Part shown: in pieces, positions 6,266-59,023 of the stretch
Layout of the letters: each line of letters begins with the position of its first letter
Numbering within the stretch: position 1 is the stretch's first letter
Assembly (NCBI GenBank): GCA_046347845.1
Contig: JAXMFH010000006.1
Coordinates: forward strand, 48,482-112,481
From: Burkholderiales bacterium
GTDB lineage: Bacteria; Pseudomonadota; Gammaproteobacteria; Burkholderiales; Casimicrobiaceae
DNA: 64,000 nt
Direction: 5' to 3'
Made by a program: the position numbers and the translations under genes
The notes under the pieces: model-generated
What the model saw: the letters and a program-made list of their open reading frames with translations, nothing else
What the model was told of the DNA's origin: nothing
Databases searched by the model: none

Positions 6266-7137
6266 GCCGGCGCGCCGCGTCGGGGGGAGGCTCGCGCGGC
6301 GAGCTTCGGGGGGGACTCCCCGCGCCCGCCGGGCCGTCCCAAGGGCGCGGCGCCCCCTCGGGGGGAGGCTCGCGCAGCGAGCTTCGGGGGGGACTCCCCG
6401 CGCCCGCCGGGCCGTCCCAAGGGCGCGGCGCCCCCTCGGGGGGAGGCTCGCGCAGCGAGCTTCGGGGGGGACTCCTCCGCCGTCCGGCGGCGCTCGTGCT
6501 CGACATGGACGGCACGCTGCTCGACACCGAGCCTCTCGCCGCGCGGGCGTGGGGCGAGGCGGCGGCCGCGCTCGGCCTCGAGTTCGACCCGGCGCTGCCG
6601 GTCCGCCTGATCGGGCGCGGATTCGCGGACTGCCGCGCGCTGATCGTCGAGCACCACGGCGAGGCCTATCCGACCGACCGCCTGATGTCCGGCTGGCACG
6701 CCGCCTACGACGCGATCGTCGAGCGCGAGGGGCTCGCGCTCAAGCCCGGCGTCGATGCGCTGTTCGCGTGGCTCGACGCCGAGGGGATCGCGCGCGCGGT
6801 CGCGACGTCGACGCGGCGCGAGCGCGCGCTCGCGAAGCTCTCGAAGGTCGCGCTCGCCCCGCGCCTGGACGCGCTGGTCGGCGGCGACGAGATCGCGCGG
6901 GGCAAGCCTGCGCCGGACATCTTCGTCGAGGCCGCCGCGCGGCTCGCCGTCGCGCCGTCGGACTGCGTCGTGCTCGAGGACTCCGACGCCGGCGCGCTCG
7001 GCGCGATCGCCGCGGGCATGGTCCCGATCGTGATCCCGGACCTGAAGCCGCCCTCGCCCGAGGTGCTGCGCTTCGGCCCCCTCGTCGTCGAATCGATCCA
7101 CGACGCGATCGCGCTGCTGGCGGACCTCCCCCGTTAG
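6262..7137 (+). CDS. HAD-superfamily hydrolase (beta-phosphoglucomutase-like phosphatase). The start is uncertain; the alternative is GTG 6496.
   Basis: HAD motif [11 protein letters not shown] and motif IV EDSDAG. ATG 6262 overlaps the ruvC TGA (ATGA) and reads in frame through the 78-bp repeats. The catalytic core begins at about 6496. Confidence 0.6.
6281..6476 (+). repeat. family A GC-rich palindromic unit, 2.5 tandem copies of 78 bp
   Basis: GGAGGCTCGCGC(G/A)GCGAGCTTCGGGGGGGACTCCCCGCGCCCGCCGGGCCGTCCCAAGGGCGCGGCGCCCCCTCGGGG repeats with period 78 (GACTCC at 6314, 6392, 6470). Confidence 0.85.
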
Positions 7138-10034: not shown

Positions 10035-10237
10035 CAGGAGTCAGGAGTCAGTTGGCAGTTGACAGCGGCGCCGGTGTTTCCCGGGGCTGCGCATCGAGCG
10101 CAGCTGGAAGGTCCGCCAGGCGAAATGGCGTCAACGTACTCCTCGACTTGAACGGGCTCGTCGGCGCTCGACGCGCCGCCACCGGAAACGCTGCCGCGAC
10201 TGTCAACTGCCAACTGACTCCTGACTCCTGACTCCTG
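10035..10237. repeat. MITE-like hairpin element, family B copy 2
   Basis: Left arm 10035-10065 CAGGAGTCAGGAGTCAGTTGGCAGTTGACAG. Right arm 10200-10230 is its perfect 31-nt reverse complement, followed by an extra ACTCCTG. It starts at the nt after the tolQ TGA and ends 5 nt before the tolR GTG. Confidence 0.9.
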
Positions 10238-10242
10238 ATCCC

Positions 10243-10663: not shown

Positions 10664-11518
10664 ATGAAAGGCGAGCGACGCGCGCCCGAGGCCGCGAACG
10701 GCCGCCGCCGGCCCGGGCGGACGCTCGCGCTCGTGCTCGCGATCCTCGTCCACGTCGCCTTCCTCGGCGTGCTCGTCTGGTCGGTACGCTGGCAGAGCCG
10801 CCCGCCCGAGCCGGTGACCGCCGAGCTCTACGTCCCGCCGGCGAAGACGAAGGCTCCCGAACCGGAGGCGAAGGCCGAGCCGCCGCGCATCGAGACGCCC
10901 AAGGCCGAGGCGAAGGCCGAGCCGCCCCCGCCGCCCCCGCCGCCCCCGCCCAAGGCGGACCCGCGCGAGGCCGAGCTCGCCCTCAAGGCGAAGGAGCAGG
11001 AGGAGCGCAAGGCGCGCGAGAAGGCGGAGGCCGAGAGGCGCGAGCGCGAGCGAAAGGCGGCCGAGGAGAAGCGTCTCGCCGACGAGAAGCGGAAGGCCGA
11101 CGAGCAGCGGGCCGCCGAGGCCCGCGAGCGCCAGCAGCGCGCGACCGAGGCGATCCGCGCGGAGGCCGAGCGCGAGGCGTCGGAGCGGGCGCAGGCCGAG
11201 GCCAGGGCGCGCGCGAAGGCGCAGGCCGACGCCGCCGCCGCCGCGGCGCAGGCCGACTGGATCCGCCGCATCCAGGCCAAGATCCGCGGCAACGTGATCC
11301 TGCCGCCCGACCTGCCGGGCAATCCCGAGGCCGTGTTCGAGGTCGTGCAGCTGCCGACCGGCGAGATCCTCGACGCGCGGCTCGCCAGGTCGAGCGGCGT
11401 GAAGGCTTACGACGACGCCGTGGCGCGCGCGATCGTGAAGTCGAGCCCGCTCCCGCGGCCCGAGCGCGCGGAGCAGTTCTCGCGCACGCTGACGCTGCGT
11501 TTCCGGCCGCTCGACTGA
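10664..11518 (+). CDS. tolA: Tol-Pal system protein TolA
   Basis: N-terminal TM, a Pro10 tract, a long Lys/Glu/Ala-rich helical domain, and a C-terminal TolA/TonB-like domain. Position after tolR. Confidence 0.8.
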   Translation: MKGERRAPEAANGRRRPGRTLALVLAILVHVAFLGVLVWSVRWQSRPPEPVTAELYVPPAKTKAPEPEAKAEPPRIETPKAEAKAEPPPPPPPPPPKADPREAELALKAKEQEERKAREKAEAERRERERKAAEEKRLADEKRKADEQRAAEARERQQRATEAIRAEAEREASERAQAEARARAKAQADAAAAAAQADWIRRIQAKIRGNVILPPDLPGNPEAVFEVVQLPTGEILDARLARSSGVKAYDDAVARAIVKSSPLPRPERAEQFSRTLTLRFRPLD

Positions 11519-11535: not shown

Positions 11536-12068
11536 CGCGCGCTTCGGGGGGATCACCCGCGCCCGCCGGGCCGCCCCAGGGGCGCGGCGCCCCCTCGGGG
11601 GGAGGCTCGCGCAGCGAGCTTCGGGGGGATCACCCGCGCCCGCCGGGCCGCCCCGGGGCGCGGCGCCCCCTCGGGGGAGGCCGCGCAGCGGCTTCGGGGA
11701 TCACCCGCGCCCGCCGGGCCGCCCGGGCGCGGCGCCCCCTCGGGGGAGGCTCGCGCAGCGAGCTTCGGGGATCACCCGCGCCCGCCGGGCCGCCCCGGCG
11801 CGGCGCCCCTCGGGGGAGGCTGCGCAGCGGCTTCGGGGACACCCGCGCCCGCCGGGCCGCCCCGGGCGCGGCGCCCCTCGGGGGAGGCTCGCGCAGCGAG
11901 CTTCGGGGGGATCACCCGCGCCCGCCGGGCCGCCCCAAGGGCGCGGCGCCCCCTCGGGGGGAGGCTCGCGCAGCGAGCTTCGGGGGGATCACCCGCGCCC
12001 GCCGGGCCGCCCCAAGGGCGCGGCGCCCCCTCGGGGCGAGGCTCGCGCAGCGAGCTTCGGGGGGATCA
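11536..12068 (+). repeat. tandem array of family A units (about 7.5 copies, period 68-77 bp)
   Basis: GATCACCC landmarks at 11551, 11628, 11699, 11770, 11838, 11910, 11987 and 12064. The array occupies the whole gap between convergent tolA and the 563-aa gene. No unique spacers. Confidence 0.9.
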
Positions 12069-13757
12069 CATCACGCGGGGCTTCTTCTCGAGGATCTGGA
12101 TGGTCGCCCAGCTCCACTCGGCCCGCTGCTCGACGAGGTGGCGCAGCGCGACCGTGTAGACCGACCGGCCGGTCATCAGCACGACCGAGCGGCCGTCCGA
12201 GTATTCGGAGGTCGGGACGATCAGCGTCTTGACCGAGAGCGGCTTGTCGGGGCGCGACGGCGGGGGCAGGTAGATGCCCTCGAACCGGGCACCCATCGTG
12301 CCGACGTCGATCCCGTTGACGACGAAGCCCATGTCCTCGCGCGCCTCGCGCCGCGTGTAGAGCGTCACCGGCACGAAGCGCTCGGCGATGATCGAGACGC
12401 CGGCCTCGACCTCCTCGACGCTGACCTTGTTGAGCCGCCGCACGACGCCGAGGACCCAGTCGGACACGTCGCTCTGCCGCACCGCGACGAGCCCGCCGAG
12501 CGCGAGGCTCTGGCCGATGCCGCCCGACGCGGCGATGCGCAGCCCCGCGACGCTGCGGTCCTTGACCTGCCACATCGGGTCCGAATACGACGCGAGGCTC
12601 GCGACCAGCGAGTCGTTCTCGTCGTGGGCCGGGCGCCGCGCGCGGGGCGTGTCGGCAACCGCGTAGACCTCGATCTGCTCGCCTCCCGGCTCGGGCGCGG
12701 CGTCGGAGGCCTCCTTCGTGGCGAGCTCGTGGCAGATGCGGCCCAGGCCGATGCGCACGCGCGCCGACACCTTGCAGGCGATGCGGGCGTCGCGCCGCAG
12801 GTCGGTCAGCACGTTCGGCGCCACCGACGGGCGCACCTTGTCGAGGATGGCGGCGCGCTGCTGGTTGATCGGCGCGGCCGGCCCGAAGTCGGTCGTTTCC
12901 GCCTGGCGCAGCGACGCGATCGCGCGGTCGATCTGGTCGGCGAGCGGCGAGGTGTCGAGGTAGCGGAGCATCGAGCCGGAATCGTTGCCGGTGCGCCGCT
13001 GCAGCCCGGTCCGCCCGGCGATGTCGACGAAGAATCCTTCCGGCGAGCGGGGCACCGCGTCGAGCTCGAGCCGCCGGCTCCAGGCGCGCAGCTGCGAGCA
13101 GGCCCAGTCGATCTCGGCGGGCGTCATGTTGCCGGTGTTGAGCTGGTGGACGAGCAGCGTGTACAGGTACTCCTGCTCCATCGACCACGCCGTCGCGTTC
13201 GGCGCGGCGCCGGCGAGCGTCGTCGGGATGCGCTCGACGGCGAGCTCCGTGGCGCGCAGGAACGAGCGGTGGAGCTCGGCCCACTTCGCCGGGATCCAGC
13301 GCTCGTAGCGGAACACGCGGAGCTTCGCGTCGGTGCCGGCGTAGTGCGTGTGGCGCGCGAACAGCATCGGGACGAGCGGCTTCCAGCGCGCGTTGCCCGG
13401 CTGCGACAGTCCTTCCTCGAGCGACGCCTGGTAGGCGGTCATGAAGCCCTGCGTCATCTCGTAGATCGCCTGCCACAGGCGCTCGGCGAGCTTCGGTCCG
13501 GTCTCGACGTTCTCGACGTACTGCTTGATCAGCTGGCGGCGGTCGGTCCCCAGCGAAGCGTCGAGGTACTGGATCGCCAGGACCCGGGCGGGGTCGACGG
13601 GCTTGCGCGACAGGCGCATGCCGTCGAACGCGCGCATGACGTGCTGCTGCCTGCCGATGACGTCGAGCGCGGGCAGCTGGCGGAGCCAGGCCGACACGGA
13701 CTTGACCGACACGAGCGGGTCGGTCGTGTCCTTGCTCGTTGTCAGGAATTCGAACAT
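12066..13757 (-). CDS. conserved hypothetical protein with a possible C-terminal PilZ-like domain
   Basis: 563-aa ORF starting [10 protein letters not shown] (ATG at 13757), with coding-like composition. Contains RRDAR (RxxxR) and DRSVAG (DxSxxG) motifs. Confidence 0.7.
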
Positions 13758-13880
13758 GGGGATCGGCGTGCCGGACCGGGGCGAAGGTCGCGGCCCGGTC
13801 CTCGGGCCGCGCGTTCCGGCGAATCTCGATTTATAGACGAATTCCCCCCCCCGCGCAAAAGCGCGGGGGCGAGGGTCCGA

Positions 13881-13886
13881 TACAAT
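13881..13886 (+). promoter_or_regulatory. candidate -10 (TACAAT) for the FKBP gene
   Basis: AT-rich hexamer in the divergent intergenic region, about 90 nt upstream of ATG 13976. Confidence 0.3.
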
Positions 13887-13975
13887 GGCCGGCCCGAATG
13901 CGAGTCGGCCCCCGCGCCCGCGCGCTCTGCCGCGCGCCGCCATCGGGCCGCCGCCCTTTCGACCGACCTCCGTCC

Positions 13976-30205: not shown

Positions 30206-30555
30206 CGAAGTCCGCCAGACCGTCGCTGCCTCCGCCTTCGGGCGGAGGGAGAGGAAAGTCCGGGCTCCAGAGAGCAGGATGCCGGGTAACGCCCGGCCGC
30301 AGCAGCCGCGGCTTCGCCGCCGCGGTCAAGGCGAGGAACAGGGCCACAGAGACGAGTCGCTCCCAGCCGTAGGGGAGCGGGTGAAACGCGGCAACCTCCA
30401 TCCGGAGCAACGCCAAGTAGGCGGACCATGACGCTGCTCGCGTCGTCCGCGGGTAGGCGGCTCGAGCCCCCCGGCAACGGCGGGCCTAGAGGAATGACGG
30501 CCATAGCGCACCTTCGGGGGCGCCGTAACAGAACCCGGCTTACCGGCGGACTTCG
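30206..30555 (+). ncRNA. rnpB: RNase P RNA, bacterial type A
   Basis: Conserved GAGGAAAGTCCGGGCTCCA (P4 5' strand) and ACAGAACCCGGCTTA (P4 3' strand). The P1 helix pairs CGAAGTCCGCC 30206-30216 with GGCGGACTTCG 30545-30555. Confidence 0.85.
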
Positions 30556-30569
30556 ACTTATTCCGTATT

Positions 30570-35425: not shown

Positions 35426-35584
35426 CAGGAGTCAGGAGTCAGTTGGCAGGAGTCAGTTGGAGCCCCGCCCACCGTGGCGAAACGTGGACCCGGCAGGACT
35501 CCGCCGTACCTCCTCCGGTTCTTGGGCCACGATGCGCCCGTTGCGCGCCCTCAATGACTCCTGCCAACTGACTCCTGACTCCTG
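35426..35584. repeat. MITE-like hairpin element, family B copy 3
   Basis: Left arm 35426-35454 CAGGAGTCAGGAGTCAGTTGGCAGGAGTC. Right arm 35556-35584 is its perfect reverse complement. It begins 4 nt after the hslU TAG and ends at the nt before ATG 35585. Confidence 0.9.
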
Positions 35585-55957: not shown

Positions 55958-55986
55958 TCCCCCCGAAGCGCGCGTAGCGCGCCTCC
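55956..55986 (-). repeat. solitary half unit of family A
   Basis: GATCCCCCCGAAGCGCGCGTAGCGCGCCTCC has the same architecture as the reverse-complemented array unit. It overlaps the stop codon at 55955-55957. Confidence 0.6.
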
Positions 55987-56004
55987 GCGAGCGCGAGCCG
56001 CGGT

Positions 56005-57622: not shown

Positions 57623-59023
57623 TCACGCCTTTCCCGCGGCGTAAAGCGCGCGCGACAGGTCCTCGACCAGGTCGTCGGGATCCTCGAGCCCGATCGACAG
57701 CCGGATCGTTCCCTCGGTGATGCCCGCGCGCTCGAGGTCCTGCGCCGACATCCGGAAGTGCGTCGTCGACGCCGGGTGGATGACGAGCGATTTCGCGTCG
57801 CCGACGTTCGCGAGGTGCGAGAAGAGCTTGAGCGTCTCGATGAACTTCCGGCCCTGCTCGCGCGTCGCCTTCAGGTTGACCGGGAACACCGCGCCGCAGC
57901 CGCGCGGAAGCAGCTTCCGCGCGAGCGCGTGGTCGGGATGGTCGGGCAGCTCCGGGTAGCTCACCGACGCGACCATCGGGTGCTCGCGCAGGAACGCGAC
58001 GATGCGGCGCGCGTTCGCGACGTGCTTCTCCATGCGCACCGGCAGGGTCTCGATCCCCTGCAGGATCTGCCACGCGGTCATCGGCGCCATGCACGCACCG
58101 AAGTCGCGCAGGCCCTCGCGCCGGGCACGGAGCAGGAACGCGGCCGTCGTCGACTCCTCCGAGAACGTCATGTCGTGGAAGCCGGCGTAGGGCTCGGTCA
58201 GCGTCGGGAACTTGCCCTGTGCGGAGGAAGTTCCCCCCGAAGCGCGCGAAGCGCGCTCCCCCCCGGGGGGCTGCGCGTCCTCGGGGCGGCCCGTCGGACG
58301 CGCGGGTATCGCGGCACGGCCCTCCCAGTCGAACGTGCCGCCGTCGACGAGGAGCCCGCCGATGACGACGCCGTGGCCCGAGAGGAACTTGGTCGCCGAG
58401 TGGAACACGAGATCGGCGCCCAGCGCGAACGGCCGCACGAGCCAGGGCGTCGTGAACGTCGAGTCGACGAGGAGCGGCAGGCCGTGGTCGTGCGCGAGCG
58501 CGGCGACGCGCGGAATGTCGAGCACGTCGAGCCCCGGGTTGCCGAGCGTCTCGCCGAAGAGGAGCCGCGTCTCCGGGCGGATCGCCGCGCGCCACGCGTC
58601 GAGGTCGCGCGGGTCGACGAACGTCGTCGTCACGCCGAAGCGCGGCAGCGTGTAGTCGAGCAGGTTGTGCGAGCCGCCGTAGAGCGCGCGCGACGCGACG
58701 ATGTGCGCTCCCGCGCCCATCAGCGTGACGATCGCGAGGTGCAGCGCGGCCTGCCCGCTCGCGGTGGCGATCGCGCCGACGCCGCCCTCGAGCGCGGCGA
58801 TGCGCTCCTCGAGGACCGCGCAGGTCGGGTTCGACAGCCGCGAGTAGACGTGCCCCGCGCGCTCCATGTTGAAGAGCGCGGCGGCGTGGTCGCTGTCGGG
58901 GAACACGAACGACGCCGACTGGTAGATCGGCGTGGCGCGCGCGCCGGTCGCCGGGTCGGGCCGCGCGCCCGCGTGCAGCGAAAGCGTGTCGAATCCGTGC
59001 GTTTTGGGCTTCGGCGTGGTCAT
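57623..59023 (-). CDS. metY: O-acetylhomoserine aminocarboxypropyltransferase/sulfhydrylase (MetY family) with a 34-aa repeat-derived insertion
   Basis: PLP-Lys motif SATKFLSGHG, THGFDTLSLHAG, and the LSIGLED tail. ATG at 59023. Confidence 0.9.
   Translation of the reverse strand: MTTPKPKTHGFDTLSLHAGARPDPATGARATPIYQSASFVFPDSDHAAALFNMERAGHVYSRLSNPTCAVLEERIAALEGGVGAIATASGQAALHLAIVTLMGAGAHIVASRALYGGSHNLLDYTLPRFGVTTTFVDPRDLDAWRAAIRPETRLLFGETLGNPGLDVLDIPRVAALAHDHGLPLLVDSTFTTPWLVRPFALGADLVFHSATKFLSGHGVVIGGLLVDGGTFDWEGRAAIPARPTGRPEDAQPPGGERASRASGGTSSAQGKFPTLTEPYAGFHDMTFSEESTTAAFLLRARREGLRDFGACMAPMTAWQILQGIETLPVRMEKHVANARRIVAFLREHPMVASVSYPELPDHPDHALARKLLPRGCGAVFPVNLKATREQGRKFIETLKLFSHLANVGDAKSLVIHPASTTHFRMSAQDLERAGITEGTIRLSIGLEDPDDLVEDLSRALYAAGKA
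58217..58318 (-). repeat. family A unit embedded in frame in metY (102 nt)
   Basis: CCCCCCGAAGCGCGCGAAGCGCGCTCCCCCCC...TCGGGGCGGCCCGTCGGACGCGCGGGTATC parallels the reverse complement of the 77-bp array unit. Confidence 0.75.

Follow-up and report, generated by a model that had tools for sequence, protein, structure and literature searches.

The window analysed here is a stretch of 64,000 nucleotides (nt) from the genome of a Burkholderiales bacterium of the family Casimicrobiaceae (GenBank assembly GCA_046347845.1, contig JAXMFH010000006.1, positions 48,482 to 112,481 of the forward strand). It contains a metY gene, encoding O-acetylhomoserine aminocarboxypropyltransferase (sulfhydrylase), that is interrupted in frame by a single unit of a palindromic repeat family, and tandem arrays of the same family lie elsewhere in the window. 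The host gene, the insertion and the related repeats are the following (ORF, open reading frame).

59023..57623, minus strand: metY, the host gene of the insertion, with a translation of 466 amino acids (aa).
58217..58318, 102 nt, minus strand: 34 extra codons (residues 236-269) relative to typical MetY, from the translation and alignments.
58226..58303, minus strand, with a margin of about 7 nt on the boundaries: the part of the insert that derives from the repeat, 78 nt or 26 codons (A241-S266, ARPTGRPEDAQPPGGERASRASGGTS), codon-phased, from the 78-nt gap against locus L107.
58233..58310, 78 nt, minus strand: the stretch resembling one full family unit (GATACCCGCGCG...CTTCGGGGGG), from alignment to array units and 101 other copies.
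58273..58304, minus strand: hairpin 1 (GCGCGTCC-GA-CGGGCCGCCCC-GA-GGACGCGC), containing the conserved loop motif of the family, CGGGCCGCCCC, from the RNA centroid fold and covariation.
58239..58260, minus strand: hairpin 2 (GAGCGCGC-TTC-GCGCGCTTC), then a G-run at 58233-58238, from the centroid fold and covariation.
11537..12069, plus strand: tandem array of about 7.3 family units with a period of about 77, between a convergent tolA-like ORF and the ORF at 12066-13943 (TRF, nhmmer).
6272..6480, plus strand: tandem array of 2.7 family units with a period of 78 (TRF, sequence, nhmmer).
55959..55990, minus strand: solitary half unit (hairpin 2 and CTTCGGGGGGATCAA) in the DUF2189/AhpC spacer, from profile matches and sequence.

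By sequence comparison, the window protein is a true O-acetylhomoserine aminocarboxypropyltransferase. It scores 805.9 bits against the NCBIfam equivalog NF006004 (cut-off 636), in a match that consists of two stretches with a break at residue 238; the lysine motif SATKFLSGHG that binds pyridoxal phosphate (PLP) is present, with K212; and homologues in the Protein Data Bank (PDB) reach E=1e-134. The gene order OsmC-metY-hydrolase-DUF2189 is kept in relatives. Around the break, the translation reads ...DGGTFDWEGRAAIPARPTGRPEDAQPPGGERASRASGGTSSAQGKFPTLTEP....

A first-pass annotation, made from the sequence alone, had placed one in-frame repeat unit of 34 codons at 58217-58318, on the premise that MetY homologues have only a few residues between the FDW and GKFP motifs. 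That premise was accurate: the distance from FDW to KFP is 2-6 residues in 57 diverse MetY proteins (mutually less than 50% identical), in the MetY structures 4kam, 7kb0 and 8sf5 the blocks that align are separated by 0-1 residue as opposed to about 34 in the window protein, and nearly all full-length matches in a search of 1.84 billion cluster representatives fall into two stretches with the break at about 234/268. Among the 120 best homologues, which are 81-98% identical and 424-466 residues long, length variation is confined to this loop. The nearest repeat-free relatives (P0004, P0005, P0006, P0010 and others; 440 aa) have the loop EGRAA(V/I)(P/A)KAKG, which in P0004 and P0005 (locus L107) is the 11-residue EGRAAVPKAKG, and the alignment of the window with L107 (P0005) at the DNA level has 1275 matches, 48 mismatches (96.4% identity) and one gap of exactly 78 nt. 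Because these empty relatives already hold the 11-residue loop, the repeat adds 26 codons, and the other 8 of the 34 are loop. The 34 extra codons and the site of the indel were thus placed correctly, but the repeat itself is shorter than proposed, 78 nt rather than 102.

A second clade gives the same result, as L108 (EGRGAAP-SARG) and L004 (EGRGAAS-[26 aa]-SARG) differ cleanly by 26 codons at loop codons 7/8, and filled and empty alleles compared codon by codon in the three metY clades with the insert (A, B and C) place it between loop codons 7 and 8. The 11-residue loop is older, being present in the outgroups P0046, P0053 and P0062. Altogether, diverse MetY proteins have a loop of 2-6 residues and this clade has one of 11, and in close relatives it measures 7, 12, 17, 20, 21, 31 or 37. 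In P0079, from a metagenome-assembled genome (MAG) labelled Aromatoleum sp., the same loop is lengthened by tandem duplication of the peptide DGGGKFEGGKFEDGKSAAAKG, which is independent evidence that this site in MetY tolerates insertions.

The family unit is about 73-78 nt long and combines hairpin 1, whose loop is CGGGCCGCCCC, with a palindrome of the form CCCCC-N-GGGGGG, hairpin 2 and the G-run. Read on the coding strand of metY, the insert is collinear with the plus strand of the array units, and both hairpins, the palindrome and the ending CTTCGGGGGG are common to them. A profile made from nine array units alone matches the metY copy at E=1.2e-3 (about 200 kb searched), and the family profile (about 180 copies, two rounds) matches it at E=1.1e-7 in 865 kb (nhmmer, 58244-58302) and at E=8e-9 in the window alone. 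An exact 32-mer from the insert occurs only once in the window even with 3 mismatches allowed, and 0 matches are expected from a dinucleotide-shuffle control; word matching of this kind misses the family, and profiles are therefore required. With a match so far beyond chance, the metY insert is, as judged from the profiles and the alignment, a single unit of the same family as the window arrays. The same E=1.1e-7 match and the covariation described below bear out the earlier suggestion that the insert has the family identity and two-hairpin architecture of the array unit downstream of tolA, read as its reverse complement on the plus strand.

Units of the arrays are 93-96% identical head to tail across all their internal parts. 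We rejected a CRISPR array as an explanation of the tandem arrays, given that whole units repeat and there are no unique spacers. The ORF at 10664-11518 (plus strand), upstream of the large array, looks TolA-like by eye, in agreement with its first label: a membrane anchor at the N-terminus is followed by a stretch rich in Pro, a middle part rich in Lys, Glu and Ala that has an 18-nt periodicity, and a C-terminal domain. Across the arrays at loci L013-L106, periods form clusters at 75, with 27 cases, and at 78, with 9, and of 59 distances between neighbours 42 are divisible by three; this excess occurs despite the mostly intergenic position of the arrays, the copies within an array are non-independent, and it may reflect the two modal lengths.

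The secondary structure of the unit is backed by covariation. In an alignment of 102 distinct copies, where the loop and linker motifs are nearly invariant and the stems variable, 91.9% of the cells of the two specified hairpins are standard pairs, compared with 26-50% when the partners are slid, and both sides of a pair have changed in 161 cells as opposed to 41.7 under shuffling, with 0 of 500 shuffles attaining 161. Eleven of the 20 pairs covary, and both-side changes are found in 4 of 8 pairs of hairpin 1 and 6 of 9 of hairpin 2. These cell counts overstate the number of events because the copies are related by descent, but the slid controls are still convincing, and so is the case for both hairpins. 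The folding energy of the insert and of the array units is no better than that of shuffled sequence (z = -0.35 to -1.6); thermodynamics being uninformative at 85% GC, we relied on covariation instead. An apparent excess of G:U over A:C (83 vs 36) is due to pair 57-74 (53 vs 6), and the remainder is 30 vs 30, so that no functional strand can be assigned. Alignment columns 19 and 31, which flank the loop of hairpin 1, also covary (CCGC-CGGGCCGCCCC-AAGG vs CCGA-CGGGCCGCCCC-GAGG); they are not Watson-Crick partners and may distinguish subfamilies, or reflect a contact that is non-canonical or read by a protein.

We took a census of the family by an exact-pattern scan over one genome per species (GTDB). 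It returned 94 stretches, all but one of them, a stray in Streptomyces, in Casimicrobiaceae or in MAGs labelled 'Betaproteobacteria' or Burkholderiales, and the profile finds 186 family copies in these loci together with the metY loci. The carrier lineage is uncultured and occurs in soil and sludge. Spacers that hold copies are convergent in 13 cases, tandem in 38 and divergent in 2, as determined with a crude gene caller based on GC content at third codon positions (GC3) that missed the window's own metY; copies in a tandem context have no orientation bias, 17 lying on the same strand as the genes and 21 on the opposite one. A consensus of the 102 copies has no GTAG/CGTC tag and no terminal inverted repeats. 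In an Rfam scan of the window no family matches the repeats, the single match being RNase P RNA (30207-30558, plus strand, bacterial class A, 203 bits). The window also contains perfect short tandem repeats at 10214-10238 and 35433-35460 (CTGACTC x3.6; CAGGAGTCAGTTGG x2), AT-rich for a window with 73% GC.

Relatives of the window organism hold the metY loop in many states, listed here by locus.

L009: the same insert as in the window, in an ENA assembly of independent origin (99.5% identity over 10.4 kb).
L004: a full but diverged unit, with hairpin 2 degraded.
L008: like L004 (19 mismatches otherwise), with a 51-nt in-frame deletion that takes out hairpin 1.
L007: only GCGCGCTTCGGGGGGG left.
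L012: a minimal loop.
L005, L006 and L024: a full unit with a different hairpin 2 (GGCGGCC...GGCCGC).
L010: the hairpin-2 half only.
L011: a degraded unit, in a more distant clade.

The half, remnant and minimal loops in this series imply that the insert has been eroded by in-frame deletions. A homologous segment in orthologues from repeat-free relatives had been named beforehand as evidence against an insertion. Homologous segments do occur in the orthologues of L004, L005/L024 and L011, but at least the L024 genome also holds intergenic copies of the family, and the segments therefore show the insert to be shared or recurrent, not native to MetY. The convergent DUF2189/AhpC spacer is variable as well: no more than the half unit is found in the window and L009, one full unit in L001-L003 (L001, 12976-13065), two or more units with an unrelated extra segment in L107 (3947-4259), and merely a simple hairpin in L012 and L004. 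Units in this spacer are flanked by 15-nt direct repeats (CTTCGGGGGGATCAA). It follows from this variation that the family gains and loses units at one intergenic site among close relatives.

The enzyme itself appears to have been preserved around the insert. Outside the loop, the ratio of nonsynonymous to synonymous divergence (dN/dS) is 0.085 at dS 0.075 between the window and L009, both of them filled alleles, and 0.09-0.18 between the window and the other clades; metY has therefore been under purifying selection while holding the insert. Inside the loop, dN/dS rises to 0.59-0.65, with dN about 10x higher than in the remainder of metY, and the inserted peptide is barely constrained. An AlphaFold2 model of the window protein was made on a diverse MetY alignment (a run on 41 close homologues, with a predicted local distance difference test score (pLDDT) of 48.6, was discarded) and has a mean pLDDT of 92.4 and a predicted template-modelling score of 0.91. 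Its sole low-confidence stretch, residues ~235-270 (pLDDT 52-54), is nearly all coil and sits between the strand at 223-227 and the helix at 273-276. Foldseek comparisons with solved MetY and O-acetylhomoserine sulfhydrylase structures, 7kb0, 8wko and 2ctz among them, give target-normalised template-modelling scores of 0.96-0.97 and root-mean-square deviations of 1.3-1.9 Å. We are thus confident, as far as a model allows, that the insert forms a predicted disordered loop in an otherwise preserved MetY fold. The surface loop anticipated by the first-pass annotation accordingly has its counterpart in a loop of variable length, and exposure of this loop in the tetramer would fit both the predicted disorder and the extreme variability of loop length. 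The PLP-binding domain of Thermotoga maritima MetY comprises residues 63-288 (PMC8191291), and the insertion site falls within the domain so delimited.

The family has entered other genes as well. We screened every family match for intragenic position, requiring an open frame and coding-type GC3/GC2 on both flanks, and found in-frame copies in four further genes: those for glutaminyl-tRNA synthetase (GlnRS; L041), an AMP-dependent ligase of the acyl-CoA ligase type (L030), an amine-oxidase-like flavoprotein, that is, a flavin adenine dinucleotide oxidoreductase (L062; two units, period 75), and a GNAT protein (L083; period 81). Pfam domains match on both sides of the inserts in all four. The alignment of GlnRS to PDB entry 5bnz is split at 502/557, with 5 residues in the structure at that point. 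At ~3040-3185 of L041 (CALDKM010000156.1), the enzyme is about 49 residues longer than 5bnz, roughly twice the coding capacity of one repeat core, and this surplus may include a second, degraded unit. Six further matches, probably upstream of the true gene starts, were not counted as intragenic (L065, L016, L022:390, L059:7829, L076 and L083:46). About 5% of the sampled loci are intragenic. Since the intragenic copies occur in both orientations and several frames, varying between genes, no peptide is conserved. Stop codons are absent from 94-99% of family copies in each of the six frames, so that an open frame says little and a length divisible by three is the only filter; the intragenic periods seen (75, 78 and 81) are all divisible by three. 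The open metY frame and the multiple-of-three length had both been adduced in favour of an in-frame insertion, and both hold, for 102 and for 78 nt, but the open frame carries little evidential weight. At L059 (4389-5429), the N-terminal ~50 residues of an ORF for an OmpA-like lipoprotein occur twice, separated by an Arg/Gly/Pro-rich stretch that derives from the repeat, which may be a repeat-mediated doubling of the gene start.

With a probability of roughly 0.85, we interpret the metY insert as a unit of a lineage-specific repeat, similar to repetitive extragenic palindromes (REPs) or bacterial interspersed mosaic elements (BIMEs), that was copied into the MetY loop and has since been a translated, tolerated passenger. 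The unit would have been copied from elsewhere in the genome into the variable loop after the final beta-strand in the PLP-binding domain. The gene would have survived because 78 nt are divisible by three, because so GC-rich a unit is free of stops in any frame and because the loop tolerates insertions and deletions. Transcribed and translated with metY, the unit would yield 26 Gly/Pro/Arg/Ala/Ser-rich residues in a disordered loop, adding no new functional domain, and would then drift almost neutrally and be eroded by in-frame deletions; tryptic peptides of the window protein that would span the junctions include ...AAIPAR / PTGRPEDAQPPGGER / ASGGTSSAQGK. Entry by copying could have proceeded through mobilisation in trans, or through microhomology-guided copying or template switching from an array. 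The array start motif CCGCGC recurs once per period and an 8-nt direct repeat, TCCGCGCG, which resembles the unit start, flanks the L004 insert; these two features suggest, as a working hypothesis, microhomology-guided copying of exactly one period. At the metY site, the comparison of filled and empty alleles reveals neither a convincing target-site duplication nor convincing terminal inverted repeats, only a direct repeat of 5-8 nt spaced by 81 rather than 78 nt, and the ends of the unit (CCGCGC... and ...CTTCGGGGGG) are not inverted repeats.

Several points weigh against this interpretation. Translation of the inserted segment, although most likely, is read from the gene sequence, and in sequence the site lies near Arg270', which lines the neighbouring active site, so that the insert may affect activity and neutrality is presumed. 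In the seven gene-sized intervals between inverted copies we saw no transposase or other mobilisation machinery; by eye they held only housekeeping ORFs (CHASE2/PP2C-like, S1, ECF sigma factor, FtsW and OmpA-like), and with no partner transposase in these intervals the proposed modes of movement are candidates only. A difficulty comes from hairpin 1, in which the window and the metY copy of clade C agree at 31/31 positions despite a dS of 0.37 in the host gene. By our own estimate, the neutral expectation for such identity is about 3e-5, which fits poorly with the drift of an old orthologous insert and calls for selection, gene conversion or a recent independent insertion.

Hairpin 1 thus bears on whether the filled alleles of the three clades go back to one event or to several. 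We put one old insertion at slightly better than even odds, and repeated insertion at the same codon at rather less than even. Of the 101 other copies in the alignment, the one nearest to the window copy is that in the metY of clade C, which counts for one origin, and so does the fact that the filled alleles of clades A, B and C have the insert at the identical position (loop codons 7/8) and in the same orientation and frame. This coincidence can also be taken to mean that the metY loop is a preferred site of integration and excision, where units enter independently at the same codon by a site-specific or homology-guided mechanism, can leave again, and behave as an array of zero or one unit; we hold this to be rather doubtful. 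In its favour, a neighbour-joining tree places every filled allele within a set of empty alleles or as sister to them, and the 11-residue loops of these empty alleles resemble those of the outgroups. Hairpin 2 of the clade C insert matches intergenic copies of its own genome, L005 (the metY allele also found in L024, DAOMBL MAG) being 92% identical to L070 of that MAG; hairpin 1 is conserved well beyond what host dS would predict; and no imported tract surrounds the window insert, only the boundary codons differing from the empty sister alleles. The direct repeat around the L004 insert, with its likeness to the unit start, points the same way. Against a preferred site, the three metY copies share a minority variant of the hairpin-1 stem (GCGTCC...GGACGC) that occurs in about 4% of non-metY copies, and the divergence of the loop (74-77% identity; dS 0.36-0.46) is close to that of the host gene, as co-divergence predicts. 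The filled clade A allele has TCC at its right boundary, as in clade B, where empty clade A alleles have AAG, a hint of common descent. Deletion between the flanking direct repeats would leave a loop of 10 residues rather than the 11 seen, and the deletions actually observed are imprecise, leaving loops of 7, 12, 17 and 20 residues. The same imprecision, set against a single origin, counts for several origins or for gene conversion. A true hot spot, with repeated in-phase entry or exchange of a tiny cassette between lineages and with hairpin 1 actively maintained within coding sequence, seems improbable to us. If true, it would imply a sequence-specific partner of the family, such as a transposase or a DNA- or RNA-binding protein, and homology-guided insertion of one period as an 'array unit' would be a mechanism undescribed for REP-like repeats.

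The hairpins in metY could also be kept for a role at the RNA or DNA level, for example as a protein-binding site, in ribosome pausing between domains or in mRNA stability, with the peptide as a by-product. Such a role would agree with the maintenance of the hairpins evident from covariation across the family, with a loop CGGGCCGCCCC that is nearly invariant over divergent genomes, with the full conservation of hairpin 1 between the metY copies of clades A and C, and with the avoidance of divergent promoter spacers, which fits an action on transcripts or gene ends. We nevertheless rate it as very unlikely for metY. Close relatives thrive without the insert; hairpin 1 is deleted in L010 and L008, and nearly the whole insert in L007 and L012, with metY still under purifying selection; hairpin 2 of L004 is degraded; the insert folds no better than shuffled GC-rich sequence (z = -0.35); and the intragenic copies lie in both orientations and several frames in unrelated genes. 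Finally, assemblies of MAGs and metagenomes may collapse or misplace repeats, and GC-rich sequences share many short words, so that a repeat misassembled into metY, or a chance likeness of low-complexity sequences, deserves mention. We reject both as having next to no probability, on the strength of the independent assemblies and the profile E-values: the same insert occurs in the independent ENA assembly at L009, diverged in-frame versions occur in JGI, ENA and NCBI assemblies (L004, L005, L006, L024 and L011) with a divergence that fits the host gene, and the profile E-values range from 1e-7 to 8e-9, with 0 matches expected in the shuffle control of the insert 32-mer.

The metY insertion offers a clean, datable case of a selfish palindromic repeat entering the gene of a core biosynthetic enzyme in a free-living, very GC-rich bacterium, with all stages (empty, full, half, remnant and minimal) preserved in close relatives. 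The phenomenon known from Rickettsia is thus not tied to reductive intracellular genomes, and in GC-rich genomes, whose repeats are free of stops in every frame, the only barriers to colonisation of coding sequences are the phase of the length and the structural tolerance of the site. The insertions also explain odd length variation of MetY and GlnRS in annotations of Casimicrobiaceae MAGs. They point to a loop of MetY with room for 26 or more additional residues, which could serve protein engineering, and they provide a strain-level marker. The general picture drawn by earlier work on Rickettsia palindromic elements (RPEs) and intragenic REPs is unchanged; the value of the present case lies mainly in the allelic series and in the question of recurrence at the same site.

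By sequence and defining tags, the family appears to belong to none of the RPE, REP and MITE (miniature inverted-repeat transposable elements) families with which we compared it, and repeats are not mentioned in the titles and abstracts of the sparse literature naming Casimicrobiaceae. BIMEs of E. coli consist of two stem-loops with conserved linkers and form head-to-tail arrays at the 3' ends of genes, with copy numbers that vary between strains. The family has the same mosaic tandem organisation, but the REPs of a BIME are related copies in inverted alternation, whereas the two hairpins of the family are unrelated in sequence and in direct order. We know of no BIMEs that occur as in-frame coding insertions.

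Since at least four other genes also contain the family in frame, the comparison with RPEs already drawn in the first-pass annotation is a fitting one. Like RPEs (Ogata et al. 2000, 2002, summarised in PMC10969869 and PMC3733652), it comprises palindromic repeats inserted in frame in unrelated housekeeping genes, namely metY and those for GlnRS, the AMP-dependent ligase, the flavoprotein oxidase and the GNAT protein, an aminoacyl-tRNA synthetase among them in the present case. Features in common are also an extra peptide that is translated (in the family most likely so) and compatible with the fold, a presence that related species share or that varies between them, and gradual decay. The two differ in that no sequence relationship was detected, as judged by the Rfam scan and the missing CGTC end tag; in unit size, about 78 nt in the family and about 100-150 nt in RPEs; in the long tandem intergenic arrays and the lack of a conserved peptide frame in the family; and in the proportion of intragenic loci, about 5% of those sampled here and nearly half in some RPE families. 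The hosts differ too: a free-living betaproteobacterial lineage with 73% GC in the present case and Rickettsia, an AT-rich obligate intracellular alphaproteobacterium, in the other.

The present insertion had been put forward as a second example of a palindromic repeat colonising coding sequence, a claim that does not stand, as intragenic REPs and MITEs are documented in many species (PMC3733652, PMC10969869). A 2024 review calls in-frame MITE fusions 'not unusual' and RPEs an extreme case (PMC10969869). Like in-frame MITEs (ERIC, Coxiella QMITE1, Anabaena MITEb/e; PMC10969869, PMC5896051), the family consists of small, non-autonomous intragenic repeats that extend or modify a protein, but the metY site has neither terminal inverted repeats (~15-30 nt) nor a clear target-site duplication, and tandem arrays are atypical of MITEs. 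Di Nocera et al. (2013, PMC3733652) catalogued intragenic REPs in many species, among them GC-rich beta- and gammaproteobacteria such as Thauera, Stenotrophomonas and Xanthomonas, and REP dimers encode 20-30 residues, for which the authors argue neutral insertion in loops and linkers. The GTAG/CGTC REPs resemble the family in being GC-rich stem-loops, mostly intergenic in tandem or convergent spacers and often clustered, of which a minority lie wholly inside ORFs and encode 20-30 residues, or 43-82 in the case of clusters (PMC3733652); the REP-like bias towards the 3' ends of genes, with depletion of divergent spacers, is likewise found in the family. The family differs in having no terminal tag and in being a composite of two different hairpins and linkers rather than a single palindrome of 20-40 nt. 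By eye, the seven intervals between inverted copies contained no gene for a REP-associated tyrosine transposase (RAYT), and no RAYT profile search was run. In its behaviour, the family appears to match the intragenic REPs of Di Nocera et al. even more closely than it does RPEs.

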